Part shown: piece by piece, positions 993-52,559 of the stretch
Layout of the letters: each line of letters starts with the position of its first letter
How positions within the stretch are numbered: the stretch's first letter is position 1
Assembly: GCF_964204645.1 (NCBI RefSeq)
Contig: NC_134026.1
Span: forward strand, 12,051,950 to 12,115,949
Length of the DNA stretch: 64,000 bases
Reading direction: 5' to 3'
Origin: Tubulanus polymorphus
Lineage: Eukaryota; Animalia; Nemertea
Position numbers and translations under genes: made by a program
The notes under the pieces: generated by a model
Told to the model about the DNA's origin: nothing
Seen by the model: only the letters and a program-made list of their open reading frames with translations
Databases searched by the model: none

Positions 993-1086
993 ATGTACTA
1001 TCCTACAATCGTCAAGGTGTGTAATATCAGTACTTGTCCAATGAGATTGCAGAACTGTCGAAAGGGGAGAAATGCCTGAGCAAAGC

Positions 1087-1175
1087 AGTAATTGGAAAGT
1101 GGGCTTTCAGATCAGAGGTCGTGCGGTCGAGACACCACTCATCACCACAAGTAATTTTTTTTCCTAATAAATGGG
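1087..1175 (+). repeat. Left terminal inverted repeat (89 bp)
   Basis: Reverse complement of 18173-18262 apart from a 1-nt indel. Confidence 0.95.
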
Positions 1176-1496
1176 AGATAGAAAAGGATTCTTAGCAACA
1201 ATAAATAACAGAATTAAACCAGCAAAAAACAATTTGAAATAAAAAAGTTAGTTGATGTTACAAAAGAAATTGAACATAAAATATTGAAATTAGAAAAGAT
1301 AAAAACTAAATATGGAGAGAAAGTATCGGCGAATTTAAGCTACTGCAATGTTAGTACATCGCGAGAATTTAAAGTGTTTTTACCTGATAAATGGGTTTCA
1401 TTGAGTACAGAGGAATTAAAAGATTTAGAAGGATTTAAAATAATCTATCATGGGAAAAATGAAGACGGTCATCATGATTTAGAAATTGTTGATTAA
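1171..1496 (+). pseudogene. Small Polinton protein (TKYG...VFLP motif), frameshifted near 1230-1240
   Basis: TAAATG start at 1171 inside the TIR; first frame stops near 1240 and continues as ORF 1284-1496. Confidence 0.65.
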
Positions 1497-2438
1497 ATAA
1501 GAAATAAAAATAATGAATATCTAGAATCCAAAATGACCTTAGTCGTTTTATTGAACAACTACAATCATACAGTCAAACATCTGTTACATGTTATTATAAG
1601 AGAGTGCTTCATTTGAATATTGATCAATCAAACAGGTGTTGCACAACGTTGTTGTTATATTGGATAGCTAGCAGTTATATAATAAGCACGCAGTACATAC
1701 AACACACACACACAGGACAGGAGGATAGTCATTCTCTCTCGTGATTAAAAGGAATATTTCAATGTTTTTACGGTAAGTTTTAGCAAAACCACCCGACTTG
1801 ACTCACAGAGTTTTTAGGGGATAAGCATCCCGTTATTGAGAGGCGCCACGAGATACCTATCCCCAAGCATTTCTACTTACACCCCTGTGACCCACACCTC
1901 ACCAATTCTCCTTCAATGGTTGACAGGAAACACATTATATTAAAGGCGCCTAATGCATTTCCTATTAACCCCTTACCCTCGAAAGGAGGATCGAAAGTCG
2001 AAACTGAAGGAGAACCACGGAGGGTGGACATTTTCGAAATGCCCCTGCAAGCCAAAAAAATATGCTAAAAAAATATATGAAATTTGAAATTATAAATTAT
2101 TCCGAATGAAAAGAATATAAGAATGAAAACTGATAAATGAATTATGGATTTTTAACTTAATTATGATATAATTTTTAATCATATTAGTAATCGATTACCA
2201 TGTTAATTGATTAACAAATTCAAATTCAAATTCAAATAATTCATTTTAGCATCACACCCCACCCAGTGCTGCCATCTTTCAATTTAAGAAAAAACTAATA
2301 ATAAGAAACGACTGTAATACAATATTCAAGTAAAAACAAAATAAATTAATAAAAATAATGAATATCTAGAATCCGAAATGACTTATCTGGACAATTTAAT
2401 TGCTCCGCATAGATAGACAAAAGTAGTGAGATATTCAA

Positions 2439-2834
2439 TTATTTTTTTTGCTTTTTTTCTAAAATATTAATCCATTTTTTTATTATCAATTTTGGAATTT
2501 CAGAAGTATTTTCATTTTTGATAGCATTTGTTTCAGAATTATTTATATCATGAATTTTATTTGATTTCTTATACCAATTACACCCAATCAAAATGAATAC
2601 AATTACAAATCCAACTGTAAAATATAGATATTTATCAAATATTCTATTATTAGAAGGAGTAGAAATAAGAATATTTTCACCATTTTTATTAACATTTTTA
2701 TTACTTATTTTTTCTTTTACAGCTTTTTTATATTCTTGTGATTTAATTCCTAATTGCCGTGACCATTCAATTTGTTTCTGTGATCTCGGTTTTGTCTTCA
2801 CAGTTAATTCCTTCACTTCTTCCACCTCGCTCAT
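2439..2834 (-). CDS. Hypothetical single-pass membrane protein (131 aa)
   Basis: TAAATG start; hydrophobic stretch YLYFTVGFVIVFILIGC. Confidence 0.75.
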   Translation of the reverse strand: MSEVEEVKELTVKTKPRSQKQIEWSRQLGIKSQEYKKAVKEKISNKNVNKNGENILISTPSNNRIFDKYLYFTVGFVIVFILIGCNWYKKSNKIHDINNSETNAIKNENTSEIPKLIIKKWINILEKKQKK

Positions 2835-3372
2835 TTATTATAGAAATATTTTTACTTTCAATATTTGAAAATGTTATAACCCCAGTTGATAATAATGTCA
2901 TAAATCCACCTAATTGAAATGATAAATATCCAATCCATTTATTTAATTCAGTCATAACTAAATAGTCATTTTTTAAATCGGAATATAATCTATTTTCATC
3001 TTCAATTGGTAGTATATAATTACATAATTTACTATAACCTTTTACTACATTTTCTGATATCGCGTCATTAATTCTAGCTGTTCTCGCGGCTTCATAAATC
3101 TTAAATAATCTAATAATTTCATCTGATTTCATTGTATCGAATTCATCATAAGTTAAATTTTTACCGACAAAATTTCTACATTTTCCAGATGCTATTAATA
3201 TTTCTAATTGATGTTTACAGTAAAGATAATATTCATAATTATTATTTGTTGTAACATTATTTAAAGCACCATCATCTGGAATTAATTTGTTTTCTGTTAT
3301 TCCTAAATCATCTAAAGTTTTTTCAATTGGAACATCACCATTTTTAGATTTTATTTTCTTTTCACCTACCAT
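2767..3372 (-). CDS. Hypothetical protein (201 aa) with a C-terminal hydrophobic segment
   Basis: T7-GTTATA-TAAATG start; intact ORF. Confidence 0.75.
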   Translation of the reverse strand: MVGEKKIKSKNGDVPIEKTLDDLGITENKLIPDDGALNNVTTNNNYEYYLYCKHQLEILIASGKCRNFVGKNLTYDEFDTMKSDEIIRLFKIYEAARTARINDAISENVVKGYSKLCNYILPIEDENRLYSDLKNDYLVMTELNKWIGYLSFQLGGFMTLLSTGVITFSNIESKNISIINERGGRSEGINCEDKTEITETN

Positions 3373-3403
3373 TTATATAACAAAAAAATTAGTTGTGATG
3401 TTG

Positions 3404-3641
3404 CAACTAGAATTCAACTAGATTAACAAGCTAGTTGAAATATTGTTGTGTTTGTTTATTTCTTGTTAAATCTAGTTGATTTTTGTTTCAACTACTAACA
3501 ACTAGAATTCAACTAGAATGTAACTAGAATTAAACTAGATTAACAAGCTAGTTAAAATATTGTTAAATCTAGTTGATTTTTGTTACAACTACCAATAACT
3601 AGAATTCAACTAGAATTCAACTAGATTAACAAACTAGTTGA
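3404..3641. repeat. Intergenic array of direct and inverted CAACTAG/CTAGTTG repeats
   Basis: CAACTAGAATT units and CTAGTT(G) counterparts, arranged in larger duplicated blocks. Confidence 0.8.
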
Positions 3642-3643
3642 AT

Positions 3644-4251
3644 TTAAATAAATTCATATTTAAATGGGTGTTGTAATCTAAATAGTAACTTTGATCTTTT
3701 AATATTTTTCAACTTATCCATATATTCATTATGTAAATCATGTGGAATAATATCATTTTCCTCAAGTGCATTTTTCATCGATTTTCTATCTTTATTGTAG
3801 AATAAAACTAGAAATCTAATGTTTTCTCTAAAGTCTTTAACAATTGAATTATATTTTTGATTTAAAACCCATGTTGTTATCCCAAAATGTCTCCCAGAGA
3901 AAGCTAGATAACATAACTCACTTTCTCTGACTTTTGAATCATGTAAATTTGCGCAATCATCTATGATAAATAATGTATTTGATCCTTTATAAATATCAAT
4001 TGCTATTTTTATACAATTATCTAAATTTTCTTTTACTGTTTTAGGATCTAATATAATAAATTTATTTTTCTAGTAATATTTCTATCATAAGTTTGATTAA
4101 ATTCATATGTTGGGCAAAATAATACTATGTTATCAAAATAGTTTTCATAAACAGTATCTAATAAATTTAATATAAAATAAGTTTTTCCACAATTTGTTAC
4201 GCCAGATATTAACATATTATGAGGCTCAAATATAAATAATTCCTTATTCAT
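3644..4251 (-). pseudogene. A32-like (FtsK/HerA superfamily) packaging ATPase with one frameshift near 4065
   Basis: Walker A GVTNCGKT; after the frameshift, Walker B LFIIDD and the SGRHFGITTWVLNQ motif; stop at 3644. Confidence 0.9.
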
Positions 4252-5379
4252 TTATATATTTTTAATTTTACTTGATAATATCCATTCATTAATTTTATCT
4301 GGCCATCCAACCCATTTTACTAAAGAATATTTTTTTCTTTTAATAGTTTTTGTTTTTAATACTTTTTCAATTTTATATTCTTGTTCTAGATTTTCAGTAG
4401 TTAAACTTAATTCTTCTTCGTAAAAGTAGCCATCAACTTCTTCACCATCTAAATCTTCTAATTTATAGACATATGGTTTTGTTGTTATTACCTTTTTTAT
4501 TTTATATATTTCCCTAGTAAAATTTCGATCGTATCCTTTGTCAAATATCTTTTTATACTTAGATATTCTAACATTTTGGCCAACTTTAAATTTAGGTTCA
4601 CCAAAATCATCTACAAGAAATGCTCCATATAAATTATTCCAAACAATTTCAGCATTTTCAGGTTTTCTAGCATCAATAGGTTTCATTCCAATAGAAGAAT
4701 GATAAGAATTATTATATCCTTCTATCAATTTTGGTAAAACATCAATCCATTTAAAAGTATTATTTGCTGTAAAATATTTCCACATTCTTGTTCTTAATGT
4801 TCTATTAAATCGTTCAACAACTGCTGCTTTTTTATCCGATTTTGTTGAAAAATATTTAATATTATGATTGTCTAAGAGTTCATGAACAAGTGAATTATCA
4901 AACTCTTTTCCATCATCAAATTGTATTTTTTCTGGTTTTAGTTTATCATCCGAAAGAAATTTTCTTAAAACATTTGATGTTTGTACAGCATCTTTTCTAT
5001 AAAGTGGGAAACTCCATACATAACGACTAAAAATATCAATTATAATCAATAACCACCAATAATCATCATTATCTTCCTTAACATTTTTCGTATCAATTAA
5101 ATCTCCTTGCCACTGTTGATCTACATAACTTACCATAGTTTTACGAGTTTTATATTTTCTAACAATTTTTTTATGTGTTGTGTATGTTGGTTGTTCTAAC
5201 ATAAATTCATTTATATCTTTATATTTAATTAAATTGTGTGGGATTATCTTATCTAATTTATCTTGTTTTACTTTACGCCATATATTTTTGGTAGAAGAAT
5301 AAGCAACCGAACTCTCAGGGTTGTAATATAAATTTCTTAAATATTGTTCTTTAGTATTAGGAGTTTTTTTACCTCCCAT
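4252..5379 (-). CDS. Retroviral-like (rve) integrase with C-terminal chromodomain
   Basis: WQGDL, IDIFSRY, FDDGKEF and VERFNRTL form the DDE motif; C-terminal YKIEKVL...LVKWVGWPDKINEW is a chromodomain. Confidence 0.95.
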   Translation of the reverse strand: MGGKKTPNTKEQYLRNLYYNPESSVAYSSTKNIWRKVKQDKLDKIIPHNLIKYKDINEFMLEQPTYTTHKKIVRKYKTRKTMVSYVDQQWQGDLIDTKNVKEDNDDYWWLLIIIDIFSRYVWSFPLYRKDAVQTSNVLRKFLSDDKLKPEKIQFDDGKEFDNSLVHELLDNHNIKYFSTKSDKKAAVVERFNRTLRTRMWKYFTANNTFKWIDVLPKLIEGYNNSYHSSIGMKPIDARKPENAEIVWNNLYGAFLVDDFGEPKFKVGQNVRISKYKKIFDKGYDRNFTREIYKIKKVITTKPYVYKLEDLDGEEVDGYFYEEELSLTTENLEQEYKIEKVLKTKTIKRKKYSLVKWVGWPDKINEWILSSKIKNI

Positions 5380-5409
5380 TTATATATCGTTAATTTTAAC
5401 TTTATATTT

Positions 5410-6657
5410 CTAATATTGAATACTATCTAATTGGGAATTTACAATATTTAATTGTGCATCAGATATAATATAAATGTGCATTTTAAAATTTTTGTCTCCT
5501 CTTTTCTTTTTCATGAATAATTGTATTCCATCTTTAGTGTTCTGTAGTTTTTTTCCAGAACCATGTAATGAATTATCCTCTGTTGTTCTAAAATCTAACC
5601 ATAATGCATATTTATTGCCGGTATAATAATCAATTTGATTAATATTACAATTTTCAAATGATTTTACTTTTTCATTCATAAAATGTTTTCTAATTTCTGG
5701 CCATTGATTAATCATTCTCATTCCTTGACAAAATATTTTATTTGCTATTCCTTCGATAGTTATTTCTACTTTTGTTATTTCAGGATTATAATAATTATCT
5801 ACCTTTATTGCGCCATTAGTATATGTTGCAATGGTAAAAAATATTAATATACCTTTAATAGATCTTCTTGGGAAGTTAATATTCTCATTAATTATTTCAT
5901 CATTTGCATTAATAGTTACAGTTTTAAATTTATCAATATAATCATATAATAATGAAAATCCTTGATTGTATTGAGTTTGAATTGTGCTAGCAATATTTTC
6001 ATTAGTTACTGTGTTATATTCTAAACATATATTCGATAATTTATAACCCATATCTTTAACAACGCTAGATAATACAATTTCATTTACAGGAGCAAATGTT
6101 ATCTCAAATATAATATCTTCTTGAATTGCGTATTTATATAAAGGTGCATTATTATTTATCAATTCAAAGTCTAATGGAATTTTATATTTGCTTCCATAAA
6201 TCTTTTTAATCAAATTATCTGTGGCACGAGTTACTATTGCGTCATTAGCTCCTGATCTTAATTTATTATGGTTTTCCGATTGAATACCCTGAAATACCAT
6301 ATTATTTCTATTTTCATTAGTTAACCATAAATCTTTATAATGCATAAATAAATTATAATCATCTAATGAGAAAACTGTTTCTGGACCAATCTTTATTGTT
6401 AATTTTTTAATCAAATATCTCCCAACATTATCGACAACATAATTATTATCATAACCAGTTACTTTTATATCGGCTGATAAATAAATACTATTTGGAACAT
6501 AAAAAGTATTTTGTGTTAATCTAGGAATTGTAACATATAAAGTTTCATCGGGATTAATATTTGAAGGCTTATGTGTAATTATATGATGTGATCTTTCTGC
6601 TTTAATAGCATTAGATATTCTAGAAATCTTAGAAGGACTTATAAAACTCCCACTCAT
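5410..6657 (-). CDS. Major capsid protein (predicted double jelly-roll), 415 aa
   Basis: Size, beta-rich pattern (LIKKLTIKIG, YKIPLDF, YKLSNICLEY, ITKVEITIEG) and context; intact ORF. Confidence 0.8.
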   Translation of the reverse strand: MSGSFISPSKISRISNAIKAERSHHIITHKPSNINPDETLYVTIPRLTQNTFYVPNSIYLSADIKVTGYDNNYVVDNVGRYLIKKLTIKIGPETVFSLDDYNLFMHYKDLWLTNENRNNMVFQGIQSENHNKLRSGANDAIVTRATDNLIKKIYGSKYKIPLDFELINNNAPLYKYAIQEDIIFEITFAPVNEIVLSSVVKDMGYKLSNICLEYNTVTNENIASTIQTQYNQGFSLLYDYIDKFKTVTINANDEIINENINFPRRSIKGILIFFTIATYTNGAIKVDNYYNPEITKVEITIEGIANKIFCQGMRMINQWPEIRKHFMNEKVKSFENCNINQIDYYTGNKYALWLDFRTTEDNSLHGSGKKLQNTKDGIQLFMKKKRGDKNFKMHIYIISDAQLNIVNSQLDSIQY

Positions 6658-6697
6658 TTATTTAACAAAAAAATTAATTATTTATTTTTAATCATGT

Positions 6698-8129
6698 TTA
6701 CTTGATATTTTTTGATATCATATTCACTAACCCAAAAATAATAGCAGTTGCAACTGTAATTAAAAATAAAATAATATGTTCAGCAGCAAAGTTAAGAATA
6801 TTCCCAGCAGATTTCAATATAAAACCAACAATTGATGCAATAATTCCTGGTAAAGCTGAAGCAGATTTTTTAAATAGTTCCCATAAATAATTTGCTAATT
6901 TCTTTAAACCATCTTTAACTTTATCTTGTATAGAATTATTACCTGGGGGTTTATCTGGTTTATTTGGAGTAGGAGTAGATTTCAAAGAATTTGATATTGC
7001 TAAACCAATTGTTGTAAATAACATAGTTACAGCTGTTAGAATTGAAAGAATTGTTATTCCTTCTAATTTAAATAATAACTTTATTCTATCTTTTAATGAT
7101 ATTTCAGAATTTGGTTTAATCAACAAATCTTTAAAAATAACTTTTAATCTATTAATATTATAATCATATGATTCTAATAATAATTTAATTTCTTCTTTCT
7201 GTACTTCTAAATTATCTTTTAAATTATTAATTTCTTTTTCTAAACGTAATTCTTTTTGCCTATATTCTATTTCATCAATTACTTGATGATCTAAATCAGA
7301 CTTTAGTTGTTCTATTTCTTTATTTGCATTAGTTAATTCTTTTTCCAAATACATAAATTTTTTGATCTCTTATACTTTTATTATGTGCAATTTTATCAGC
7401 TTCATTTCTTATACTAATAATTTCTCTAATTGCTTCATCAGAAAATATATTTAAATCTTCTAATTGTTGATCTGTTGCATCAAGTAATCCATTCGGTAAA
7501 AGTTTTTCAATTAGAACTTTATTTGATTTAAGTTTACTAGTTTTAGAAGTTTTATTCTGTTCAGAAGTTGTTTCTGTTTTTGATTTCTTTTTGATTATTT
7601 CAAATAATTCATTAATTCTTTGTTTAAATACGTCTATATCATTATCAGTTAATTCTTGTTTTATAACATCAGTTATTACATTACTATTACTTATTCTTTT
7701 AATTCTATCTGGATCTAATTTTCTCAAAGTTAATTTTGTTATTATTTTTTTTTAATAAGTGATATCAATATAATAATCATCTTTCAAACGATAATAACAT
7801 TTACCATTATCTAAAAATTTTAATTGATCTGCTAAAAGTCCAACGTCTTCATCATTTATGTTAAGTTTAGATTTTTCAATTAAATCTTCTAATTTAGGTA
7901 TTTTGTTTAAATTATCTAATTCTTGTTTTACTAAATCTGGGTCTAAATTTTCAGGATTTAATTGTGATTCTGAATTTTTAATATAATCAGGCATATTTAA
8001 ATTATTATTATATTCTGGCTCATTGCCATCATTAAAACTTGTTTCACTAAAATCAGGTTGTTGTTCATCAGTTATACCAGGTTCATCAAAAGGATCCATT
8101 CCAATATCTTCTCCACCTTCTACATCCAT
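6698..8129 (-). pseudogene. Coiled-coil protein with acidic N-terminus and C-terminal membrane helices; one gene broken into three ORFs
   Basis: Single TAAATG start at 8129; in-frame TAA at 7752-7754; frameshift near 7340. Confidence 0.7.
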
Positions 8130-8145
8130 TTATATAATAAAAAAA

Positions 8146-9536
8146 TTAAAATTTAAGATATAATATTCCTCCTATAACAATTCCTATACAAGTTTAAGCT
8201 AATTTAGTATTTTCATGTAATTTATTATCATTATCAGTTTTAATTATATCATGTTGAATATTATCAGTTTTAATATTTTCTGTACTATTGTAATCTTTTA
8301 TTTTGGAATCATTATCCAATTTAATATTCTTAGTTTTAGTTTCTGTTGATTGAATATGTTTTTTATTTTTTTCACTTTCCATTAATTTTGGAGCAGTAAT
8401 TATCTTTTTATTTATATCATTCAATCCAAATGAATTATTTATTGTTGCAGTTTTAATTAGATTATTATAACCAATTATATTTCCCATCTTTAATACTAAA
8501 TCATTAGAAATAATTAATAGATTAGGGCCTATACAATAATTTAATCTAATATGTGATTTATCTAAATAATTTTGATATCTTACAATGTTTTCTGGAATCG
8601 ATCTATTTTTATCATTATAAATGGAATCTTCAAATAATACTTTAAATTGTTTCTGCGTATCAAATGATGTATTTAAATTTCCAATTATTGGGGATCTTGT
8701 TTCAACTTGCGCACCTAAAATACATATCAAATAAGTTCTAATAGATTGATTTATTCTTTGTATACCTGATTGTGTAAAACCTTCATTATTTTCTAAAATG
8801 AAATAAACCCAACCATTATTGTTTTCTTGTTTTAAATTATCATAAAATGTCGGTAATTTATTGAAATTTAATGTTTCTAAATCATTTGTTTCTATTTTAC
8901 CATAACCTCATTTATTACTATAGATGTTATAAAAACTATTAAATGGTATGGAAGTGCACAATATTCTGCAATCTTTTTAGGGCAAGGAAGTGATCTTATT
9001 GTTCCAATTTTTGTTCTAAAATCAGAATTATTTATATCTATATTAAATTCATTACAAATTTTATAAAACTTTGATAAATTAATATTATTATCTTATTCTT
9101 TAAAATACCTAGATCCTGGTAAAGCGCACTCTAATTCATTTAATATTATTCTGATTTGAAAGTATGTATGAAATCTAAATAAACTTTGAATTAATTTATA
9201 TTTAGAATTATTCAAATGATCATTCCAACTAATTCCACAACCTGTTGTTGCACAATAAACAGCAAAATTTAATTGGTTTTGCCAATACTTCATATTAGAT
9301 TTTAATAACCATTGTTTTTCATCTTTCAATTTTTTAATATTAATTAAATATACATGAAATATATTTTCCATCTTTGCATTAAAATTATTAGTTTCAGTAA
9401 CATAAATTTCTAAATTAGTTAGTAATGAATCTAAAACTTCATTTCTATATGTAATATCTTTATTAAAATCTATTGCTGGAATATTATATTTAATTGATTT
9501 ATTATATTGGAAAGCTTTTGGAAAACTATCTACCAT
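8146..9536 (-). pseudogene. Conserved-looking hypothetical protein (WQNQLNFAVYCATTGCGIS motif) with C-terminal hydrophobic tail, disrupted
   Basis: TAAATG start at 9536; fragments 9093-9536 and 8194-8730; reading through the stop at 8194 gives TCIGIVIGGILYLKF. Confidence 0.65.
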
Positions 9537-9552
9537 TTATATAATTAAAAAA

Positions 9553-9987
9553 TTAATAATTCATTAATTCTTTTAATAATTTATCTTGTTCTTCAACTGT
9601 TATATGACCATTTAAACTTATTATATAATCTAGTGTATTCTTTAATTTATTAATTCCTTTTATATTAGTTTTAATTTTTTCTTTATTACTTTTTATATTT
9701 AATTTTGAACTTATACCAGTTAATACACTTGAACTTAATCCTAATACACCAATTGAAATAGCTAAAGGTGTTAATGGGCTGAATATTGCTAAAAATGTTA
9801 TTACAGAACTAATTGTAACCGAACCACTTATAATCAAATAATATATAATTTTACTTTTTAAATATTTTTTCTTTTTTATCTTTAAGTCACTTTCAAATTC
9901 TAATATTTGTTTTTCTAAATATGTTTTTAATTTAGTTTTATTTATATCATGAGGAATAATATCAATACTATCAACTTTATCTTCCAT
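9553..9987 (-). CDS. Hypothetical two-TM membrane protein (144 aa)
   Basis: T8-CTAAA-TAAATG start; central hydrophobic hairpin. Confidence 0.75.
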   Translation of the reverse strand: MEDKVDSIDIIPHDINKTKLKTYLEKQILEFESDLKIKKKKYLKSKIIYYLIISGSVTISSVITFLAIFSPLTPLAISIGVLGLSSSVLTGISSKLNIKSNKEKIKTNIKGINKLKNTLDYIISLNGHITVEEQDKLLKELMNY

Positions 9988-10006
9988 TTATTTAGAAAAA
10001 AAATTA

Positions 10007-10429
10007 CTAATTAGTAAATTTATATGCTACAAATATAACAATAACTGTTCCACCTAAAATCCAAATTATTTCATATTTCTGTTGTTCTTTACTTGGGGTG
10101 TAATAATCTGATAATTTAGGTTTGTATTGATGTAATTTTTCTTTATTTGTTACGGCGTTATATAAACTCATTGCATCATCAACTGATTGAAAATCTCTAT
10201 GTGAAATCTTCTGATCATATAATTCTTTATTGATGTAATCCATATAGTTTTGCCTCCTTTCTCTATATTCTTCTGCTGCTTTATTGTATTTCTCTAATGC
10301 TAAGTTATGTCTTCTTTGTTCTCCTAATGAACTATTTTTATCAATATGTTTAAATAAATATCCACCACCAGTAAATGCTAAAGCGTTAACAATTGCCGAT
10401 CCTATAATAGTTATAATTGCAGAAGCCAT
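10007..10429 (-). CDS. Hypothetical membrane protein (140 aa) with hydrophobic N- and C-termini
   Basis: TAAATG start; IGSAIVNALAFTGGGYLF, central helical region, C-terminal TM. Confidence 0.8.
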   Translation of the reverse strand: MASAIITIIGSAIVNALAFTGGGYLFKHIDKNSSLGEQRRHNLALEKYNKAAEEYRERRQNYMDYINKELYDQKISHRDFQSVDDAMSLYNAVTNKEKLHQYKPKLSDYYTPSKEQQKYEIIWILGGTVIVIFVAYKFTN

Positions 10430-10453
10430 TTATTTAGTAAAATAATTACGCAT

Positions 10454-10675
10454 TTATATGGGAGGAATATATTTTTGTTTTTCCAAATAATCAATAGTTA
10501 AATTAGATAAAGTAATTGCTAATGTTAATTTTAAAATATCATTTATATCAAATCTATCAACATTAACACTTCCCATTTTAAATACTTTTTTTAATACCAT
10601 TGAATAACCAACAGTTCCAACTGATAGTAATGCGCCATTATATAATCCAGTTATTATCCACTTATTATCACTCAT
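10454..10675 (-). CDS. Small hydrophobic protein (73 aa)
   Basis: T9-GATAAA-TAAATG start; fits the tight gene packing. Confidence 0.7.
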   Translation of the reverse strand: MSDNKWIITGLYNGALLSVGTVGYSMVLKKVFKMGSVNVDRFDINDILKLTLAITLSNLTIDYLEKQKYIPPI

Positions 10676-10682
10676 TTATTTA

Positions 10683-11033
10683 TCAAAAAAAAATACTATC
10701 ATCAAAATATTTAGTTAACTTATTTACGATTAATTCAACATTTATTTCATTACTAGTTTCATTTGTATATATTTCAATTATTATTTTTTTAATATCATCG
10801 ATGATAAAATCTTCAGCTAATTCATAAAATCTTAAAGATTCTCTAATTAAATTAGTAATCTTTTCTACATTTAAAGTTTCTTTATCTATTGTTTTTTCAT
10901 ACTCAAATGTTGTTTCATTTGAAAATGCAATATTTTTGATATGTGTAATTACATCATTAATGTTAAATTTCATTTCTTTCTCACGTTTAAAATCAAATCC
11001 AAAACATATACTCGGTCCAACAGTTATATTCAT
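10683..11033 (-). CDS. Hypothetical protein (116 aa)
   Basis: T6-CACTATA-TAAATG start. Confidence 0.7.
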   Translation of the reverse strand: MNITVGPSICFGFDFKREKEMKFNINDVITHIKNIAFSNETTFEYEKTIDKETLNVEKITNLIRESLRFYELAEDFIIDDIKKIIIEIYTNETSNEINVELIVNKLTKYFDDSIFF

Positions 11034-11049
11034 TTATATAGTGAAAAAA

Positions 11050-11812
11050 TTACTCTTTACATCTTATAACTAATTCATAAATTACGGGAAAGTTATTCAA
11101 ATCAATTAAATAACCATTATGATTTCTTATTTCTAATTTAAAATTATTGAAATGTGGAATACAAGGTTTGAAATCATATTCAGTTAAATTATAATTTATT
11201 TGAGTTCCAAATTGTTTGACATTTTTTAATGGTAAAATATTTAATAAACCAGAATTACAAATTGTATCTTTAGTTGCTTCAAATGTTTTTGTTGGGTCAA
11301 TCAAATTGCAATAAATATAAAAATGTGTAAAAGGTATTAAGTTTGATCTACCTTCTGCGTATGCTGTAACAATATCTGGGTTAATTCCTAACAGTTTACC
11401 TAAAGGTTTTCTTACTTTAAATTTAAATTGTTCGTCATTAGCTAACCTAATCTTTATTTTATTAGAACTATCACTTTTTAAAATTCTAATACTAAATCCG
11501 GAATCACTTCCTAATTTAGCTCGAGCTTTTCTATTAATTTTTTGTGCTAATGTATCTAAACTATATAATCCTGGTTTTAAATATATATATAAAAAACCAT
11601 TTATTCCTTTTTTTGTAAAAGATTGAAAAAATTAAATGTTCTAGACTTTTATCCTTTATATTATAAAAAGAATTACATAAACTTATATTAACTAATTTTA
11701 AATCTACACAATTCTTAAATTCTCTATTTAATTGAACTAGTAAATTATGTGATTTATAATTTGTAAGTTTTCTAGAATCAACAAATATTCTGTATTCTTT
11801 TAATTCTACCAT
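11050..11812 (-). pseudogene. Minor capsid protein (penton, single jelly-roll), frameshifted near 11590
   Basis: N-terminal IFVDSR...SFYNI, internal FKPGLYS and FYIYCNLI, C-terminal LEIRNHNGYLIDLNN match the penton pattern. Confidence 0.75.
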
Positions 11813-11880
11813 TATTTATAACATAAACAAATTACCGCTCATCACTAAAAATTAATTTTAATAAAATTTTTCCTAAATAA

Positions 11881-13197
11881 ATGGATGAGAAGATAGCATG
11901 CGAAATTTGTGGTGAACTTCTAAGAAAAAGTAATATGGCTCGACATATGAAAAAACATGATGAAAATTATAAACCCCCTAAACTAAACTGTCCAAAATGT
12001 AATAAATTATTCTCAAGAAATTATGTTAAAAAACATTCAGAGAAGTGTAAAATTAATGGCGCAACGGCTAATGTTGATAGTAATGAAAGTAATAGTAATT
12101 CTGCTGAAGTTGAACCTGAAATTATTTGGAAAAGACCTTTCTTATTCTATGACAAGGATAATATAAAAGATCATATCTGTGAGCCTTGTCAAGTAAAATA
12201 TAGCCCTGAAAATAAAGAAGATTGGGAGAATCATCAATTTCGTAAAGCACATATAGATAAAATTTCTAATAAATTTGAAACTGAATTCAATGAAAGAAAA
12301 AATAATTTATTAGAAAAAATAAAATATGAGAAAACGTTACCAGATAATAAAGAAACAGTTGAAAAGTTAGAAAAACAATATAATGAATTAACAAGAAAAA
12401 CATATTATTGTAAATATTGTCAATTGATTATTACAACAAGTAATTCAAATCTACATAATAGAACAATAAAACATAAAGAAAACGTAAGAAAATACCAAGA
12501 GCTTAATGAAGATCTATTACCAATACATTATAAACAAAAATGCCCACAATGTAGTTATGCAACCTTAAGACAAGAAGGTACTGTGTTATTTTGTAATGAA
12601 TGTGGATGGCAAAAGAATTTATGGAGTGAAGAAAAAACTAGAAATTTTCTCATAGATCCAAAATTAAATTATCTAGATGAAATTTTTAAAATATTTTCTA
12701 TAGAAGATCATACACCAGAATATATGCAATGGCTTGAAAAAATGAAAATAATAGAAAATAAAAATGGTGAAATAACTAAAAAAGATATTATAAAAACAAT
12801 TATTCCGTCAACATTTAACACAAAACCAAAGAAAATGTATTTATATTTATTATTTAACGATTATTATGAAAAACCTAAATTAACAAAAGAAGATATGAAA
12901 AATATAAAAAAAATATTCAAACAAATATTAATGTATCATTTGGAAAATAGAATAACAGATTCAATAAATTATGAATTCTTTTTAAATAAGATTGTAGATT
13001 ATTTATACATAGATATTATAATTCCATTTGATGAATTAACAAACAAAAAGAAACAAAGAGAGCGAGATGAAATGTGGAACAAGATAGAACTTTATTTAAA
13101 TAAGAAAAATGAAATGGAAGAAGAACCTAAACAATTAAATGAAAATGAAGAAGCCAATAGTGATTTCGAGTATGATGATATTGATTTTATGTTTTAA
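11881..13197 (+). CDS. Multi-zinc-finger protein fused to a poxvirus A2/VLTF3-like late transcription factor domain
   Basis: N-terminal C2H2/C2HC fingers; then a CPQC-x13-CNEC ribbon, NF...KL.YL, IFKQIL...EN...SINYEFFLNKIVD and a C-terminal W, resembling vaccinia A2 ([13 protein letters not shown], recalled from memory). Confidence 0.8.
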   Translation: MDEKIACEICGELLRKSNMARHMKKHDENYKPPKLNCPKCNKLFSRNYVKKHSEKCKINGATANVDSNESNSNSAEVEPEIIWKRPFLFYDKDNIKDHICEPCQVKYSPENKEDWENHQFRKAHIDKISNKFETEFNERKNNLLEKIKYEKTLPDNKETVEKLEKQYNELTRKTYYCKYCQLIITTSNSNLHNRTIKHKENVRKYQELNEDLLPIHYKQKCPQCSYATLRQEGTVLFCNECGWQKNLWSEEKTRNFLIDPKLNYLDEIFKIFSIEDHTPEYMQWLEKMKIIENKNGEITKKDIIKTIIPSTFNTKPKKMYLYLLFNDYYEKPKLTKEDMKNIKKIFKQILMYHLENRITDSINYEFFLNKIVDYLYIDIIIPFDELTNKKKQRERDEMWNKIELYLNKKNEMEEEPKQLNENEEANSDFEYDDIDFMF

Positions 13198-16100
13198 TAA
13201 CCATAAGGTAATGTTTTTATACCATCACCTGAAATATGTCTTTTATCATCAAATGGATTTAAACTAGTTTTTTCAACTTCATTAATGTACATCTCATGAT
13301 CTTCTGATCTTATACAATTCATTTTGTGTTTCATTACAATTGAGTTATATAAACACTTTATATAATCTTGAAATTCTATATGTTTATCAACCACATGTTT
13401 TGTTATTCCTTTTAACTTTTTAGCTTCATGATCTTTTGTTCTATAACTATACATTTTACTTCTTATCCCAACAAATTCAATCATTTCATCACCCCCTAAT
13501 TCATCTTTAAACTTACCAGGAATCTTTTTATTATCATTGCTAAATAGTTCATGATCTTTGGGATAATTGCTAAAATCAAAATGATGTTTTAATGTTTTTA
13601 AGTCTTTTGTTATGTCATTTGTCTTGATTTTTAGTATGTAACTGTCAGTATTGAAGCAAATTAATGGAAATCCACAGTTAAATGTATCATCTTCAGTTGA
13701 TAAATCATAAACATAATCTGATGGGTTATATATTTCAAATAAATCTTTAACTTCTTCAGTTAAATCTTTTTCTGTGTGGCTTAGATTAAAGCAATTTGGT
13801 TTAGATTTAATCAATCCAATATTCATATTGAAGCCTATTGAATTACATAATATATTTAACCCTGATATAGCAACTTTTCCTTTCTGTGCAAAGGTTATCT
13901 TTTTATCCTTTGTAAATTTTTTAGCACCATCTGCTGCATAGAATCCAATGAAGAACCATTTTCTTAAAATATTTTTTGCATTTGATACATAATCTGGAAC
14001 TATCTTTTCTTTTGTTGAAGTATTACTTTTCACTATTGCATGAATATAGAATTCATCATTATATTTTATAGCAAAATCTTTAGGATTATTTACAAGTATT
14101 CTATAAACTGCTGATGATTTCATAACATCCATGATTTTAAATGTTTTATTTGGATAAACTTCTTCACAGAATTTCTTAATTCTTTCTAATAATTTTAAGT
14201 CTTGATTGCATAAATACCAACAATATTTATTACCCCAAACATAATTATACACACCTGCTGAACCATCACCCATGAAAAATCCTTTGATAAAATATTCTTT
14301 TTCTTCTAATGTTTCGGGTTCTATGTTATAAATATTATCAATTATTTCATCAAATGACATATGATTCATTCTTTGGAAAAATCTTTTATGTAATAATTCA
14401 TCTCCAATTTTTATATCAGTTGGTTTTATTTCATCGCCATTTCGTTTAATTAAACTATGATCTTCTGTAACATCTACAAACCCTAATTTAGTTCTAACTC
14501 TATAGATTTTCTTATTTGTTTTATGCCTAATAATATTCTTTAATTTTTTCCATCCATTTCTTGTCCAAACATCCATTAAACCATTTATTTGTATTAATTC
14601 TTTTTCACCATATGAAATATAACATTCATTTTGTTTTGGAATTATTTCTGAAATTCTTCTTATCAATATTTCATAATTACATTTTAATAATATTGGGGTG
14701 TCAGCTGTTACAGAATCAAAATATAATATTTCAATATGCTTTTCCCCAAAAAGTGGTTGTAAAACATTATAATAAAAATCATACATTAATAATTTTGATA
14801 CTTCTAAAACAGTTGAACCAATGAATATAGGTTTATTAAATTTCATTGACGTTCTTTTTAATTTAACTGCTGTTCAATAATCTTCAAATCTTTTATTTCC
14901 TAAATGTCTAGGACTTGATTGTAAATGTCTTAATCTTTCAGAATTATTTACTAATTCAATATCATTTCTATTTCTAATATTTTCACATGTTTTACCATAA
15001 AAACTATTATTCATTAATTTGAAGAAATCTTTTTCAAAATCTGTTTTTGATATTGTTCTCCGTTGAGTATTGAAATCTATATATTTTTCTAACCACTTCG
15101 ATTGATTAAATTCAATATATCTATGTACTTTCTTTAATTTCATTCCTTGTTTTAGATAAAATTTTAACATTCTATAATGAACAATATAATTGTATTTATT
15201 ATTTTGAGTAAGTATTAATTTTTCTGTAAAAACATGATCTTTCGGTTTTATTTTCTTCTGGTATTCACTTAAATAACTATCATCTACGGTTAAATGTTCT
15301 GGGCAATAAGGTAAGTTTCTTGTTTTAAACTTTATATTTTCAGGATATTCTAAATCAACTACAAAGAAATAACCAATTGGCGCTTCATCTTTTAAACTCG
15401 CAATTGCGCTTTCCCAATCAGTTTTATCATCATTTTCAACTTCTGTTCATATAAAATTTTTGTATGGTTGAGGTTGCATCATTGCCCAACCATATAAATT
15501 ATTGGCGTCAATATATAATAATTTATATTCATCATTTGCTTTAAAATATCTATCTCCCATAACACCACTAATTCCACCTCTAATTGATTTTTCAAATAAT
15601 AAAATCATATCTGGTTCTTTTAATAAATCTTATTCTACATTTGTATATTTTAAACCACATTGCCAGGTTAAACCAGGACTAGAGTAGCAATAACAAGGAT
15701 CAACATTAAAATGATTCAAATTAACTTCTCTAAATTTTTCAAATATGTCAGCCAATTTCATAACATCTGATTATAAATATAAATCAACTAATTCACCATG
15801 ATTTTTCATCTTAAAATGGTTCCAAATATTTAATGTTCTATTAAACACTTCGTCTTTCACATACTCCTCTTTTAATTGATCATAAAATTGATCTTTTAAT
15901 AATTCTGTTACATTAAAATCATTGTGTGTTTTATAAAATGAATAAGGAATTGCGCCTTTATATCTCAATAATTTAAAATCTTGTTCATTTGGATAATAAT
16001 ATCGAGTTATAACAAAATCATTATCAACTAAACTTTTTGATAAATTATCTAATGAACTTGCTAGAAATCTATAAGAATCTAAAAATCTAATGCAACCAAA

Positions 16101-18177
16101 TTGAAATGAAATATAATTTTCAGATGTTTTAGCTAATAGTTTAAAATCATATTTTCTTACATTTACACCATTCATAGCATTATATTCTTCTATTTCTTGA
16201 TTAATTGCGCCCAATTTTCCCGATAATTGTTTTATAAATAGATGGGTATCATAGCCTGATAAATTATGAAATAATATTGGTACGAAATTAACTTTCTTAG
16301 CTTGTAAATTGCAATCTTCATGAGCAGCTCCACGATATTTTGAATTTAAATGATCATGATCTCTAACTTTTTTATCAAATGAATAAAAACGTTTTTCACA
16401 ATAACAACAATGAGTTGCATAATTAAAATCAATTTCAAAATCATTAACTACATTTTCACCTCTAAAAGAAATATATTGACTTTCATATAATTCAGGATAA
16501 TTTGATTTTATATAAATTCCATAAGCAGCAGCTCTTTGATGAACTTTTTTAATTGTATTTATAATTGGTGGGTCTTGTATTGTGTCTTCATTTAATTCAT
16601 TTCCTTTATCCATTGATTTTAATAATTGCTTTTTGTTATATATTTCTTTTCTATCTTGATCAGTTAATTCTTTATTCAACGATTCAAAATCCCCATAAAT
16701 TACAAATGGAACAATATTCTTGAATTTATGATTAGTAAATTTCAATTTATAATCTTTTTCTGTTGGCATTATTAATTTACAAAAATCTTTATTATCACAT
16801 AATTCTTTATGTTTTAATAATGTATTCTCAGTCATAAATTTAGATAAACATTTTCTACATAGATAAATTTTATGATGATGATCACTTTCTGTTCTAAAGA
16901 ATAAATCAATTTGTTTTAACCACATATAATGTTCATTTTCATCTTTTTTGTAATATAACAAATCTATAGCATTTTCATCATCATAATATTCTGTTAAATA
17001 TAAAGCTTCCAATGTATAATCTTTAATATTTTCACCTTTTGTCTTTGGTAATTGCATTAATTCGAATACATTTATTTTTAAATTATTGACTTTTTCTATT
17101 TTAGAAATCATTTTTATAGTTACTGGATATTGATCAATTTTATATAATGTTTCATATTTCCGATAATCTGTTATTCTACAAACATTTTCCTGTGTTGGAT
17201 GTAAGCAACTAATAATTGACCATAGAAAACATTTATTATCTTCATTTTGAATATTTATTACTGCTTTTGTTGTAAATGGTAATTTAATATAAGATGATGC
17301 TTTAATATCCTTTTCTGTTGTAAAGTTTGAATCATTTTTAAACATTTTATTACTTTTTGATGTTTTGTTTCTTTTTGTATTATAAACATTTAAATCTAAA
17401 TATATAATTTCATTCAATGTTAAGCCAGAACCCTCAAAATATCTTTCTTCAATATGACGTTTAAATTCATTTAATATTTTTTTCTAACTTCTCTTTTATT
17501 TGTGTTTTTGAAATTATTTCTTCAGAGAGTGTTTGAATATTATAATTCATTTTTTCTTCTGACTTTATAAAACTTACTTTCCCAGAGATACTAATTTTTG
17601 GATTTTCAACATCTGTTATCAAATATAGTATTTTTTCTATTATTTCATTAAATTTACTATAATCTTCTATTCTTGTTCCTTTAAAAAATCTAAATATAAT
17701 AGCTGCAGGACCAATTTTACTATGTAATGTTTCTAAAATTTCAATTGTATCTTTTATTTCTAGTGAATCAATATAATTTCTAACATTTTCCATGTAAGGT
17801 TTATTTGAAATGGATTTAGTTTTTGAATTTGGTTTTTTTACTTTTTGAGGTTTATCGTCAAAATAATCTTTTCCTAAAACATTATTGCTCAAATTTTGGT
17901 GGTGTTTTTGTGATTCGAGATGTCTATTATAATTCCTTTTTGTTATAAACTCATTACAAACTTCACATTTTATTTCATCCACATTCATATTTTCTAATCG
18001 TTCTTTTCTTTCATTGGAATTTTCTGAAGTTTCAAAATCTATTCCATTTTTTATATGATTTGCAGTTTTTTCATGTCGTGATTTTTGGGATTTATCGATG
18101 TATTTTTTACAATATTGACAATCATATTGATTTTTATTAACATTATTGTTTTCTGGCTGGTGTTCATTCTCCCCCAT
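13194..18177 (-). pseudogene. Protein-primed family B DNA polymerase with N-terminal zinc fingers and an intein; 1 frameshift and 4 in-frame stops
   Basis: Exo motifs YGDFES, FHNLSGYD, FLDS; motif A YIDANNLYGWAM; motif B KLMNNSFYGK; motif C YFD/TDS; KMYSY, KLKGI and DDKR. Frameshift in an A7 run near 17480; stops at 15771, 15630, ~15447 and 14874. Confidence 0.95.
13650..14714 (-). mobile_element. Intein (355 aa) with LAGLIDADG homing endonuclease in PolB motif C
   Basis: YFD|SVTADTP ... VTEDH (block B) ... FIKGFFMGDG and FFIGFYAADG ... YVYDLST ... LICFN|TDS; removal restores YFDTDS. Confidence 0.95.
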
Positions 18178-18262
18178 TTATTAGGAAAAAAAATTACTTG
18201 TGGTGATGAGTGGTGTCTCGACCGCACGACCTCTGATCTGAAAGCCCACTTTTCCAATTACT
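18173..18262 (-). repeat. Right terminal inverted repeat (90 bp)
   Basis: Inverted copy of 1087-1175; includes the pPolB start codon. Confidence 0.95.
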
Positions 18263-18285
18263 CAAAGCTAATCACATTGCGAAAC

Positions 18286-19330
18286 TGGGATCGAGGTACT
18301 GTGTGTCGCGTGGATTACCCTTATACAAAGTGGCTGGGATCGAGGTGCTGTGTGACGCGTGGATTACCCTTATACAAAGTGGCTGGGATCGGGGTGCTGT
18401 GTGACGCGTGGATTACCATTATACAAAGTGGCTGGGATCGAGGTGCTGTGTGACGCGTGAATTACCCTTATACAAAGTGGCTGGGATAGAGGTGTTGTGT
18501 GTCGTGTGGATTACCCTTATACAAAGTGGCTGGGATCGAGGTGCTGTGTGTCGCGTGGATTACCTTTATACAAAGTGGCTGGGATCGGGGTGCTGTGTGT
18601 CGTGTGGATTACCCTTATACAAAGTGGCTGGGATCGAGGTGCTGTGTGACGCGTGAATTACCCTTATACAAAGTGGCTGGGATCGGGGTGCTGTGTGACG
18701 CGTGGATTACCCTTATACAAAGTGGCTGGGATCGGGGTGCTGTGTGACGCGTGGATTACCCTTATACAAAGTGGCTGGGATCGAGGTGCTGTGTGTCGCG
18801 TGGATTACCCTTATACAAAGTGGCTGGGATCGAGGTGCTGTGTGACGCGTGGATTACCCTTATACAAAGTGGCTGGGATCGAGGTGCTGTGTGACGCGTG
18901 AATTACCCTTATACAAAGTGGCTGGGATCGGGGTGCTGTGTGACGCGTGGATTACCCTTATACAAAGTGGCTGGGATCGAGGTGCTGTGTGACGCGTGAA
19001 TTACCCTTATACAAAGTGGCTGGGATCGGGGTGCTGTGTGACGCGTGGATTACCCTTATACAAAGTGGCTGGGATCGGGGTGCTGTGTGACGCGTGGATC
19101 ACCCTTATACAAAGTGGCTCGGATCGGGGTGCTGTGTGGCGTGGGGATTACCCTTATACAAAGTGGCTGGGATCGGGGTGCTGTGTGGCGTGGGGATTAC
19201 CCTTATACAAAGTGGCTGGGATCGAGGGGCTGTGTGGCGTGGGGATTACGCTTATATAAAGTGGCTGGGATCGAGGTGCTGTGTGTCGCGTGGATTACCC
19301 TTATATAATATTGCTAGGATCGAGGTTTTT
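18286..19330. repeat. 49-bp tandem minisatellite, about 21 copies
   Basis: Unit GGCTGGGATCGAGGTGCTGTGTGACGCGTGGATTACCCTTATACAAAGT repeated head-to-tail without spacers. Confidence 0.95.
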
Positions 19331-19854
19331 GCCCTGGTTTACCTGTGGCTGGATCGAGGGGCTATGAATATGTCGGTTGGTCAGTAAAAAACGCAAAGTT
19401 TGTAGCCAAATAACTCTTTGAAAGATTTTTTGTCATATGCCAGTTTGTCGGTATGTTGGTAGAAAGCTGAGTGCACAACAGCCGAATTACTCCTTTTTAA
19501 AAATATATCCTTGAGTGAACTAGTCCACGCAAACCTGGACTTGAACCGGTCTTATTAGGACCAGAAAGGACTGGCAGTTGTCCTAAAACATATGATTTTT
19601 AATCCATTTTGAACTGAAGGATATCAAAAAAGTCTTCATTGAATGGGTTTGAAAAGAGAAAATTGACTCGAACGTTTCCATGCCTACATACCAAACTTCA
19701 GTTGGTAGGCATGGAAACATATTGTTAAACTTTCACATCGTCACAGCGTAGAGGATGTCTCACTTGGGGCGTAACATCAACCATCCTCGCTTGCCAGGGG
19801 ACGAGTATCACTCCCGAACTCGCTTCCACCAGCCCCCTGGCCTCACGAAGCGTG

Positions 19855-26313: not shown

Positions 26314-26853
26314 TTTATCATTTCAACTGTCAAACAATTTATCATTTCAACTGTCAAACAATTTATCATTTCAACTGTCAAACAATTTATCATTTCAACT
26401 GTCAAACAATTTATCATTTCAACTGTCAAACAATTTAACATTTCAACTGTCAAACAATTTAACATTTCAACAGTCAAACAATTTATCATTTCAACTGTCA
26501 AACAATTTATCATTTCAACTGTCAAACAATTTATCATTTCAGCTGTCTTATCATTTCAACTGTCAAACAATTTATCATTTCAACTGTCAAACAATTTATC
26601 ATTTCAACTGTCAAACAATTTATCATTTCAACTGTGAAACAATTTAACATTTCAACTGTCAAACAATATATCATTTCAACTGTCAAACAATTTATCATTT
26701 CAACTGTCAAACAATTTATCATTTTAACTGTCAAACAATTTATCATTTCAACAGTCAAACAATTTAACATTTCAACAGTCAAACAATTTATCATTTCAAC
26801 TGTCAAACAATTTATCATTTCAACTGTCAAACAATTTATCATTTTAACTGTCT
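26314..26853. repeat. 24-bp tandem repeat, about 22 copies
   Basis: Unit ATCATTTCAACTGTCAAACAATTT. Confidence 0.95.
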
Positions 26854-26904
26854 ATTAGATATTTAAATCATTTAACTCAATTCAATAATTATAATGTAGA
26901 ATTG

Positions 26905-27552
26905 TTACTCTTTACGCCAGTTTTTATGTTTAATTGTGTCATAATGCTTTGATTTATGTGATTTTGAATATTTACCTCCGCAATAACAATGAATTTTTTC
27001 ATTAGGATTGAATTTTCTAAATTCATCATCTAAATTACATTGAACTGCAATATCTTTAAATGATTTTTCATTATCTAATTCACATTGAATTCCAATATTT
27101 GATGAATTTTCGTTATAGATAATTTGTTTATTATCAAAATTGAAATAATATAATTGTCTTTTTTCAATTCTTAAGTTAATCAAATCATTGTAATCTTTTG
27201 AAAGTATTATATCATTATTTCTTTCATTGAAAGGAGTTTTAAGAATATAAATTATGTTTTCATCTAAAGTTCCTTTAAAATTTAAAACTGTATTGAATAC
27301 CTTAGGATTTTTAACACCATTATCAAAAGTATCTACTAGTTCAGTAATTAAATAAGTTTCATTTGATAATATTTGATTAATCATAGTTATGTTATCGATT
27401 TTATAATGTCTTGCGGACACTAAATTTGTTGCTGAAATATAATTTTTAATGTAAAACTGTGAAAATGATTTATTGGTTTCATTGATTTCGATTTTAAAGT
27501 TGGGTTCTTCTTCTTTATTCATTTTTATAACAAAATTTTTATTAAAACTCAT
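26905..27552 (-). CDS. Hypothetical 215-aa virus-like protein with C-terminal zinc finger
   Basis: Intact intronless ORF ending IHCYCGGKYSKSHKSKHYDTIKH; its 5' half is duplicated in the opposite TIR (26038-26300). Confidence 0.7.
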   Translation of the reverse strand: MSFNKNFVIKMNKEEEPNFKIEINETNKSFSQFYIKNYISATNLVSARHYKIDNITMINQILSNETYLITELVDTFDNGVKNPKVFNTVLNFKGTLDENIIYILKTPFNERNNDIILSKDYNDLINLRIEKRQLYYFNFDNKQIIYNENSSNIGIQCELDNEKSFKDIAVQCNLDDEFRKFNPNEKIHCYCGGKYSKSHKSKHYDTIKHKNWRKE

Positions 27553-52220: not shown

Positions 52221-52559
52221 AACAATCACAAAATGTTCAGCATGCCATAGTTAATCAGCAACACCATGATAAAACACCTTCCAAAACACCACAAAATTTG
52301 TGCCAACTGTAGACACAAATGTCCAGTCTGGACACCACAGTAATCCAAAGGTTTCACATTCTACACTGGTTGATAATAACACTATTTTAACTCAGATCAT
52401 GGAAAACCCTTTAGTTGATTTTGAAACTCTCAAGTATACACCGGTTTTTACGGTAAATCTAAGTCTATGAACAATCTCATTCCACTCCAAAAAAATCAAG
52501 GGTTCATAAACAAACGTTCCAAATCTGCCTGCCTCAAACTGCCACCAAAATGGCCTACA

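Follow-up and report, generated by a model that had tools for sequence, protein, structure and literature searches.

A poxvirus-type VLTF3 domain fused to four zinc fingers in a Tubulanus polymorphus Maverick with poxvirus-late-type promoter signals

Introduction

Homologues of the poxvirus late transcription factor A2/VLTF3 have been described in several groups of Preplasmiviricota, i.e., stony-coral polintoviruses (PMC11131425, which cites Krupovic and Koonin 2016 for earlier reports and has no VLTF entry in its text supplement), MELD viruses (PMC8502044), Zephyr PLVs (10.64898/2026.06.19.733378), and Tetraselmis PLVs (10.1101/2025.10.09.676808). The element analyzed in this work shares with them the presence of a VLTF3 homologue as an accessory gene, but the available descriptions of those elements report no finger fusion, no poxvirus affinity (one homologue is mimivirus-like), and no promoter analysis.

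PLVs of about 12 kb associated with entomopoxviruses were proposed to be poxvirus parasites (PMC11296320), and the terms VLTF, promoter, motif, and late transcription do not occur in the main text of that report. Both those PLVs and the present element are small integrating dsDNA elements; however, the helper link of the former is described as coming from co-purification, whereas here it comes from sequence signals. A precedent for mimicry of the late promoter of a helper is provided by virophages, among which the Mavirus/EMALE elements are, similarly to ours, integrated and carry genes with a helper-type late promoter (10.1101/2025.10.09.676808). They differ in having a protist host and an Imitervirales helper (with CroV late promoters), and that source, as available, does not mention a VLTF3 of their own. 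Finally, egoviruses were proposed to be the closest relatives of poxviruses, with a gene passed to Trichomonas polintons (10.1101/2024.03.23.586382).

A literature search, outside of which most subscription papers and preprint supplements lay, found no paper describing a pox-type VLTF3-finger fusion or TAAATG/pox late promoters in polintons, and none stating a TFIIB or cyclin fold of VLTF3. The presence of VLTF3 in polintons is already published, and the interest of the locus presented here is that an integrated, multi-copy element combines a pox-type factor with pox-late-type promoters throughout its genome.

Results and Discussion

A 17-kb Maverick as the Host Element

The window, i.e., the entire 64,000-nt stretch of T. 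polymorphus DNA analyzed here, to which all positions refer unless another locus is named, contains a Maverick (Polinton). For some of the features listed below, a sister Maverick, represented by two loci (L072 and L074), served for comparison.

1087..18262, no strand: Maverick/Polinton, 17,176 bp, about 23% GC versus about 36% in the host stretch
1081..1086, + strand: left target-site duplication CAAAGC, 6 bp (right copy at 18263-18268)
1087..1178, + strand: left terminal inverted repeat (partner at 18170-18262), with an inward-facing T-run/TAAATG signal inside
3647..4251, - strand: A32-type packaging ATPase, in two frames in this copy (the sister gene matches Pox_A32, E 4.6e-11)
4252..5379, - strand: retroviral-type integrase with chromodomain, open frame (Pfam rve above cut-off)
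5410..6657, - strand: likely major capsid protein, open frame (Capsid_N weak, E 0.01; 74% identity to the sister gene)
13194..18177, - strand: DNA polymerase B, protein-primed; two U1-type fingers at the N-terminus, one intein (DNA_pol_B_2 above cut-off)

The element has the set of features by which Mavericks are recognized: a polymerase B together with an integrase, terminal inverted repeats (83-nt arms, 99%) with a 6-bp target-site duplication, a packaging ATPase and, weakly matched, a capsid protein. The polymerase of this copy is broken by one frame break and four in-frame stops, and several further genes besides the ATPase are split over two frames; the VLTF3 ORF, arranged tail to tail with the polymerase, is whole. 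No gene for an RNA polymerase is present in the element, and a chordopox A1 profile, used as a probe for A1/VLTF2, found no match in it. The intein (about 350 aa, with a LAGLIDADG domain; 13194-14873, - strand) is inserted in the catalytic YFD-TD motif of the polymerase, and the polymerase of the sister (L072) has no intein.

Mapping of one same-species DNA run (1,934 million letters) gave a read depth of about 270-310x over the VLTF3 ORF and varied flanks at the left end of the Maverick, and because of these two observations the family is considered multi-copy. Two indels inside the ORF (among the 12 shown of 46 found) are multiples of three and lie in the acidic tail. The depth reached about 1,090x over some structural genes, as compared with about 270-310x over the VLTF3 gene, which suggests subfamilies that share the structural block and differ in the VLTF3/polymerase block. 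Moreover, 341 reads leave the reference at 11813 into one other sequence, and part of the family may lack the VLTF3 gene at this position.

Judging from the flanks, the host genome appears to be repeat-rich. A 49-nt tandem array (18138-19417) starts at the right terminal repeat and extends about 1.2 kb into the flank, an LTR-retrotransposon gag fragment (206-727) lies beside the insertion, and to the right of the Maverick there is a decayed helicase region (52400-54800), which we take to resemble a Helitron. A 2.4-kb AT-rich element (25576-28014) has 631-nt inverted arms and two opposed copies of one gene start; its intact gene (26905-27552, - strand) encodes a C-terminal Cys/His finger motif and has no Pfam match, while the second copy runs into a 24-nt tandem array.

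A Diverged A2/VLTF3 Domain behind Four Zinc Fingers

The gene of interest comprises the following parts; P0005 and P0009 are two relatives found in a protein search presented below.

11881..13197, + strand: A2/VLTF3-like ORF, intact: four zinc fingers, A2/VLTF3-like domain, and acidic tail
11899..11958, + strand: finger 1, C-x2-C-x11-H-x3-H, aa 7-26 (ligands kept in P0005 and P0009)
11989..12048, + strand: finger 2, C-x2-C-x11-H-x3-C, aa 37-56 (last ligand His in P0009)
12178..12252, + strand: finger 3, C-x2-C-x14-H-x5-H, matrin/JAZ-like, aa 100-124 (P0009 counterpart above the zf-C2H2_jaz cut-off)
12409..12474, + strand: finger 4, C-x2-C-x11-H-x5-H, U1-type, aa 177-198 (Pfam zf-U1 29.9 bits, cut-off 22)
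12541..12603, + strand: C4 zinc ribbon (C221, C224, C238, C241), aligned to the A2 ribbon, aa 221-241
12652..13104, + strand: helical VLTF3 domain, predicted cyclin-like fold, aa about 258-408

The first-pass annotation had described this gene as an intact A2/VLTF3-like factor with added N-terminal zinc fingers, and this description holds: there is a single uninterrupted frame of 438 aa with four Cys/His fingers, the C4 ribbon, the quoted peptide, and the terminal Trp helix (W399) are all present, and the peptide given there for vaccinia A2 matches the fetched A2 sequences.

For the analysis of homology, a profile was built of 37 chordopoxvirus A2 proteins, three of which were checked in Pfam (PF04947 and PF08792). 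It aligned with aa 220-411 of the full ORF, collinearly and without rearrangement, at 25.7 bits; the isolated domain scored 29.0 bits (21.3 bits without the ribbon), whereas the maxima among shuffled sequences were 10.6 bits for residue shuffles (1,969 scored of 2,000) and 9.9 bits for shuffles with the ribbon kept (1,996 scored of 2,000). In the ESM Atlas, 27 of the 30 hits of aa 214-415 were Pox_VLTF3 clusters (top score 0.96), with short Nucleocytoviricota/Preplasmiviricota VLTF3 clusters (0.95-0.96) ranked slightly above a ribbon-annotated pox-like cluster (0.94, rank 9). In a 16-row alignment the four ribbon cysteines, KL, IFK, INY.FFL.KI, and W are invariant at an overall identity of 20-24%.

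An HMM search against the Pox_VLTF3 family, which had been proposed as a check, did not recover this homology: the ORF and its parts matched neither PF04947 nor PF08792 even at a loose threshold, and a scan with NCBIfam gave no VLTF3 match. The Pfam cut-offs were likewise not reached by P0005, P0009, and four other pox-like relatives. Word-seeded protein searches with the single domain gave no matches and with an alignment query only P0009, and the copy of the PDB searched by sequence contained no A2 or A2 relative among its solved structures. Although below the Pfam threshold, the domain is, by profile score and alignment, a diverged A2/VLTF3 homologue beyond what chance would give. It shares with poxvirus A2/VLTF-3 (PF04947 and PF08792) the C4 ribbon placed directly before the helical domain, about 190 collinear residues, and the spacing of indels, but it is only 20-24% identical to it, carries four fingers in an N-terminal extension of 215 aa as well as an acidic tail, and is encoded in a genome with no A1/VLTF2 or RNA polymerase detected.

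A Pox-Type Domain Placed outside the Poxvirus Crown in the Best Trees

The domain had been said to track vaccinia A2 more closely than the mimivirus/phycodnavirus VLTF3, and this stands for profiles and indel spacing but not for raw identity (20.1% versus 18.9%), which is non-discriminating, being 17.8-21.8% to every VLTF3 group. Against profiles built without Maverick rows, the domain scored 63.8 bits with a 29-row poxvirus-like profile and 22.9 bits with a 12-row Megaviricetes-type one; the scores were 53.4 bits for a trio of proteins (P0026, P0028, and P0029) and 29.3 bits for chordopox alone. The Phe-to-Tyr spacing is 18 in the ORF, as in all nine chordopox/fish-pox rows, versus 21-24 in all 11 Megaviricetes-type rows, and the ribbon-to-helix spacing is 20, versus 21-22 and 22-31, respectively. 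The members of the trio (VLTF3-like proteins of 290-305 aa, encoded on short public contigs) make up a deep branch of their own and are as close to the ORF domain as any poxvirus A2; a locus search found no genomic context for them.

The main tree comprised 48 rows and 206 columns (LG+C20). Its poxvirus-like rows were gathered with a pox-weighted profile, and the named ones among them are only carp edema virus and a Diachasmimorpha entomopoxvirus protein. Left out were 30 of the 37 chordopox and 23 of the 33 Megaviricetes-type loci, near-duplicate cluster members, and fragments (P0002, P0010, P0030, P0033, and P0001), and the trees were built without asfarvirus, egovirus, mriyavirus, and protist PLV VLTF3s. 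In this tree the three Maverick rows formed a clade (100/99), separated by a long stem from 11 Megaviricetes-type rows and lying outside the 30 poxvirus-like rows (96/83), where it adjoined the trio. The path length was 4.95 to chordopox versus 7.03, distance favouring the pox side. Trees of the helical part alone and of recoded residues gave the same picture with weaker support (88/74, 45), the one with support of 88/74 having also been built without P0016, P0034, and P0009. The AU test did not reject the joining of the Maverick clade to chordopox (p 0.17), to the entomopox-like rows (p 0.34), to the trio (p 0.25), or to the Megaviricetes-type clade including P0034, its strongly supported sister (p 0.47). 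The joining to chordopox plus fish pox was rejected (p 0.028).

By profile and spacing the domain is of the pox type, and in the trees it forms a deep branch outside the poxvirus crown, several other attachments being compatible with the AU test. This bears on the origin proposed in the first-pass annotation, i.e., that a factor was captured from a poxvirus helper and that the added fingers bind DNA of the element in a sequence-specific manner and thereby divert the polymerase. The placements with entomopox-like or chordopox rows, not rejected by the AU test, would allow such a capture, but in the best trees the clade lies outside the poxvirus crown and one of the poxvirus placements is rejected. 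The part of this proposal concerning the fingers is considered below.

Predicted Fold

A single-sequence model of the domain was poor (pLDDT 42), and a search of viral folds with it put cowpox VLTF3 first (E 0.012). In a second model (pLDDT 68) a poxvirus alignment was used, so the viral fold matches obtained with it are partly circular: pox and entomopox VLTF3s took ranks 1, 2, and 4, and VLTF3s of algal and amoebal viruses and of asfarviruses were matched as well. When the helical part was compared with 48,161 solved chains, the best 17 of the 50 matches listed all had the cyclin fold (Z 5.0-6.4, which is below the clear range of the tool; rmsd 3.2-6.5), and these included cyclins, TFIIB (7o4i_M, 5iy6_M), a polymerase III initiation factor chain (8ity_V), the Rb pocket, and Orc6. 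Foldseek on the PDB gave nothing significant (no match under E 0.65).

Because the list of cyclin folds is uniform and a ribbon stands in front, the model suggests a layout as in TFIIB, for which the ribbon-plus-cyclin arrangement is described (PMC11579359). The TFIIB family shares the N-terminal C4 ribbon followed by a (here predicted) cyclin-like helical domain, but the ORF has one cyclin-like repeat, a short ribbon-to-core linker, and a Z of only 5.8-6.0, which points to a resemblance in fold and not to membership.

Conservation of the Fusion in a Sister Maverick

A profile search of 1.84 billion representatives resulted in 34 proteins, of which P0005 (697 aa, 44% identity) and P0009 (446 aa, 30%) resemble the ORF far more closely than any poxvirus protein does, and both keep all four fingers plus the VLTF3 domain. 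The P0005 gene lies in L072 and, as in the window, is arranged tail to tail with the polymerase gene, which there encodes an unbroken protein of 1,336 aa; L074 contains the start of the fusion gene and the structural block of this sister Maverick or of a near-identical one. Locus searches of viral and metagenome contigs with the single domain, the capsid, or the integrase gave no matches. Going by these comparisons, the fusion is a family trait that recurs in two other lineages, one of them a sister Maverick. The core genes (capsid, integrase, and polymerase) are about 60-89% identical between the window and the sister; this comparison and the conservation across lineages point to a fusion gene which is old, has been kept intact, and evolves faster than the core.

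The sister also carries a deoxynucleoside kinase gene (L074 9260-9901, - strand; Pfam dNK E 1.7e-31), adjoining the VLTF3 gene and preceded by the same promoter signal, whose counterpart was not seen in the window Maverick. Such a nucleotide-supply gene would fit extranuclear replication.

The rapid divergence of the fusion resembles that of genes engaged in conflict and would suit a poisoned VLTF3, which ties up the A1/G8 or the polymerase of a helper, lowers its late expression, and protects the host, the element's own promoters relying wholly on helper factors. Furthermore, the NFL/NFH, KL, IFK, INY, and W positions, needed for a binding surface, are conserved. Nevertheless, the element uses the same type of promoter as the presumed target (see below), so a block of late initiation would silence the element itself unless the fingers exempted it, and we consider such a decoy quite improbable.

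Poxvirus-Late-Type Signals at the Gene Starts

The starts of 14 genes of the window Maverick were fixed by comparison with the sister. The hexamer TAAATG is found at 13 of them, against a background of 52 of 672 ATGs (P about 5e-14), at all 14 starts of the sister, and also at the P0009 gene. The usual signal consists of TAA, seven bases that are mostly T, six bases, and TAAATG followed by G or A, and in the gene of interest it takes this form:

11862..11884, + strand: promoter-like signal of the VLTF3 ORF: TAA, A/T run (T at -14 to -10), 6-nt spacer, and TAAATG with the start codon

A T occupies -13 at 13 of 14 starts here and at all 14 of the sister; at least five Ts within -16..-10 were counted at 10/14 and 11/14 starts (window and sister, respectively) as compared with 4/38 other TAAATG sites. 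The T-run/TAAATG signal is present in both terminal repeats as well.

In vaccinia, late promoters are described as containing a TAAAT that overlaps the start codon and in most cases has a G after it; ten bases before it, within further Ts, a T is conserved (PMC11980589), and a T-containing core lies 5-7 bp from TAAAT (PMC5294985). The starts of the element have both TAAAT(G) at the start codon and the T about 10 nt upstream, by which a poxvirus late promoter is defined in sequence, and among the 1,008 ORFs of the fetched poxvirus loci, the 295 that start with TAAATG likewise show their highest T frequency at -13 (57%). The TAAATG starts, named as promoters in the first-pass annotation, occur across the element, and they come with the T-run that lies upstream in poxvirus late promoters. 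The element promoters also share a TAA at -19..-17, which is unmarked in the pooled poxvirus profile. It should be stressed that the TAAATG signal may not single out Poxviridae, and a helper need not belong to this family.

A variant with an A-extended T-run (AATT...) was observed at the starts of the ATPase (4251), the integrase (5379), and VLTF3 (11881), and at 2834, and it is partly kept in the sister; this variant may mark an earlier, intermediate-like class. Coupling of stop and start codons as the cause of TAAATG was rejected: it is true of the integrase/ATPase junction (4252/4251), but most starts have spacers. The number of T5NT early terminators in coding strands was within the shuffle range both here (7 versus a mean of 12.3, range 6-20) and in the sister (13 versus 20.5, range 12-29).

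These signals have to be weighed against an autonomous nuclear element, in which the TFIIB-like fusion would bring the host RNA polymerase II to the TAAATG promoters without any helper, and the fingers would make the contact with promoter or chromatin for which A1/G8 or TBP are otherwise responsible. The predicted ribbon and cyclin fold, resembling those of TFIIB, and the integration of a high-copy Maverick in the nucleus are in line with it. To our knowledge, mriyaviruses and chloroviruses are without an RNA polymerase of their own. Mriyaviruses (35-45 kb) are described as keeping both VLTF2 and VLTF3 (PMC11253617), which would be a parallel, but VLTF2 was not found in the present element (as judged with the chordopox A1 profile only).

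The architecture of the signal also speaks against polymerase II. The Kozak context usually has a purine at -3, whereas the element signal has T at this position and leaves no 5' UTR. As a TATA box it would be badly placed: where it reads TATATAAATG, transcription by polymerase II would begin within the coding region, 25-30 nt from its start. The T-run, in turn, stands at the position it has in vaccinia late promoters. Transcription by the host polymerase alone is, in our opinion, rather unlikely.

Fingers and the Question of Re-Targeting

The spacing within the fingers is x11, x11, x14, and x11, the gaps between them are 10, 43, and 52 aa, and canonical linkers are absent, so they depart from a classical DNA-binding C2H2 array (C-x2-4-C-x12-H-x3-5-H with short conserved linkers). 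Their Pfam classes are zf-U1, zf-C2H2_jaz, and zf-met, and finger 4 shares its pattern with the pair of N-terminal fingers of the polymerase encoded by the element. Fingers of the U1/matrin/JAZ kind mostly bind RNA or protein.

A sequence-reading DNA array is not indicated by these patterns. Re-targeting by DNA-binding fingers, as assumed in the capture proposal introduced above, fits poorly with the U1/matrin-like ends and the 11-residue (in one case 14-residue) spacing, and there is no new site for it, because the element promoters already resemble generic pox late promoters. On the other hand, all four fingers are conserved across 30-44% identity, and the TAA at -19..-17 could serve as a finger site. 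Taking spacing, Pfam classes, and tree placement into account, a poxvirus-helper factor re-targeted in this way seems improbable to us.

A Helper-Dependent Element?

The reading to which we give an even chance is that of a helper-dependent Maverick, which supplies its own initiation factor and is transcribed by the RNA polymerase of a putative helper, a co-infecting pox-like large DNA virus. Such a helper is suggested because two independent sequence signals coincide, i.e., the pox-type VLTF3 and the genome-wide pox-late-type starts. The signal would act as a late promoter of the poxvirus type, at which transcription starts within the AAA and slippage produces a poly(A) leader that replaces the 5' UTR. 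Both an RNA polymerase, for which the element has no gene, and A1/VLTF2, which was not detected in it, would be supplied by the helper.

The VLTF3 domain, with its predicted ribbon and one cyclin fold like the front half of TFIIB, would join or displace the corresponding factor of the helper in the initiation complex, entering it with the A1- and G8-like partners; in vaccinia, A1, A2, and H5 are described as interacting with G8 (PMC2674943). The N-terminal fingers, probably drawn from the finger repertoire of the element itself, would tether the factor to nucleic acid, proteins, or nucleoprotein of the element without recognizing a promoter sequence of a new kind. The element would profit by being transcribed more in the factory of the helper and by depending less on a single helper species. 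As to its origin, the domain may go back to an ancient exchange with the poxvirus side of the large DNA viruses, or to common ancestry with it, and not to a recent capture from a known poxvirus.

Conclusions

The pox-type fusion and the promoter signals bear on how Mavericks are transcribed, and on whether those of animals live as autonomous viruses or parasitize large DNA viruses; the family makes the question of transcription testable with a plasmid reporter. The domain is a natural, 20%-identical variant of A2, and as such it may offer a predicted TFIIB-like fold for the poxvirus factor. It is conceivable, though in our view less likely than not, that these high-copy Mavericks are endogenous virophages of an undescribed pox-like virus, whose late transcription they would commandeer by means of pox late promoters on every gene and a TFIIB-like VLTF3-finger fusion. 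If so, they would mark a deep poxvirus-side lineage in the host, and A2/VLTF3 would be a TFIIB-like factor, built of a ribbon plus a cyclin fold, that a parasite can swap.
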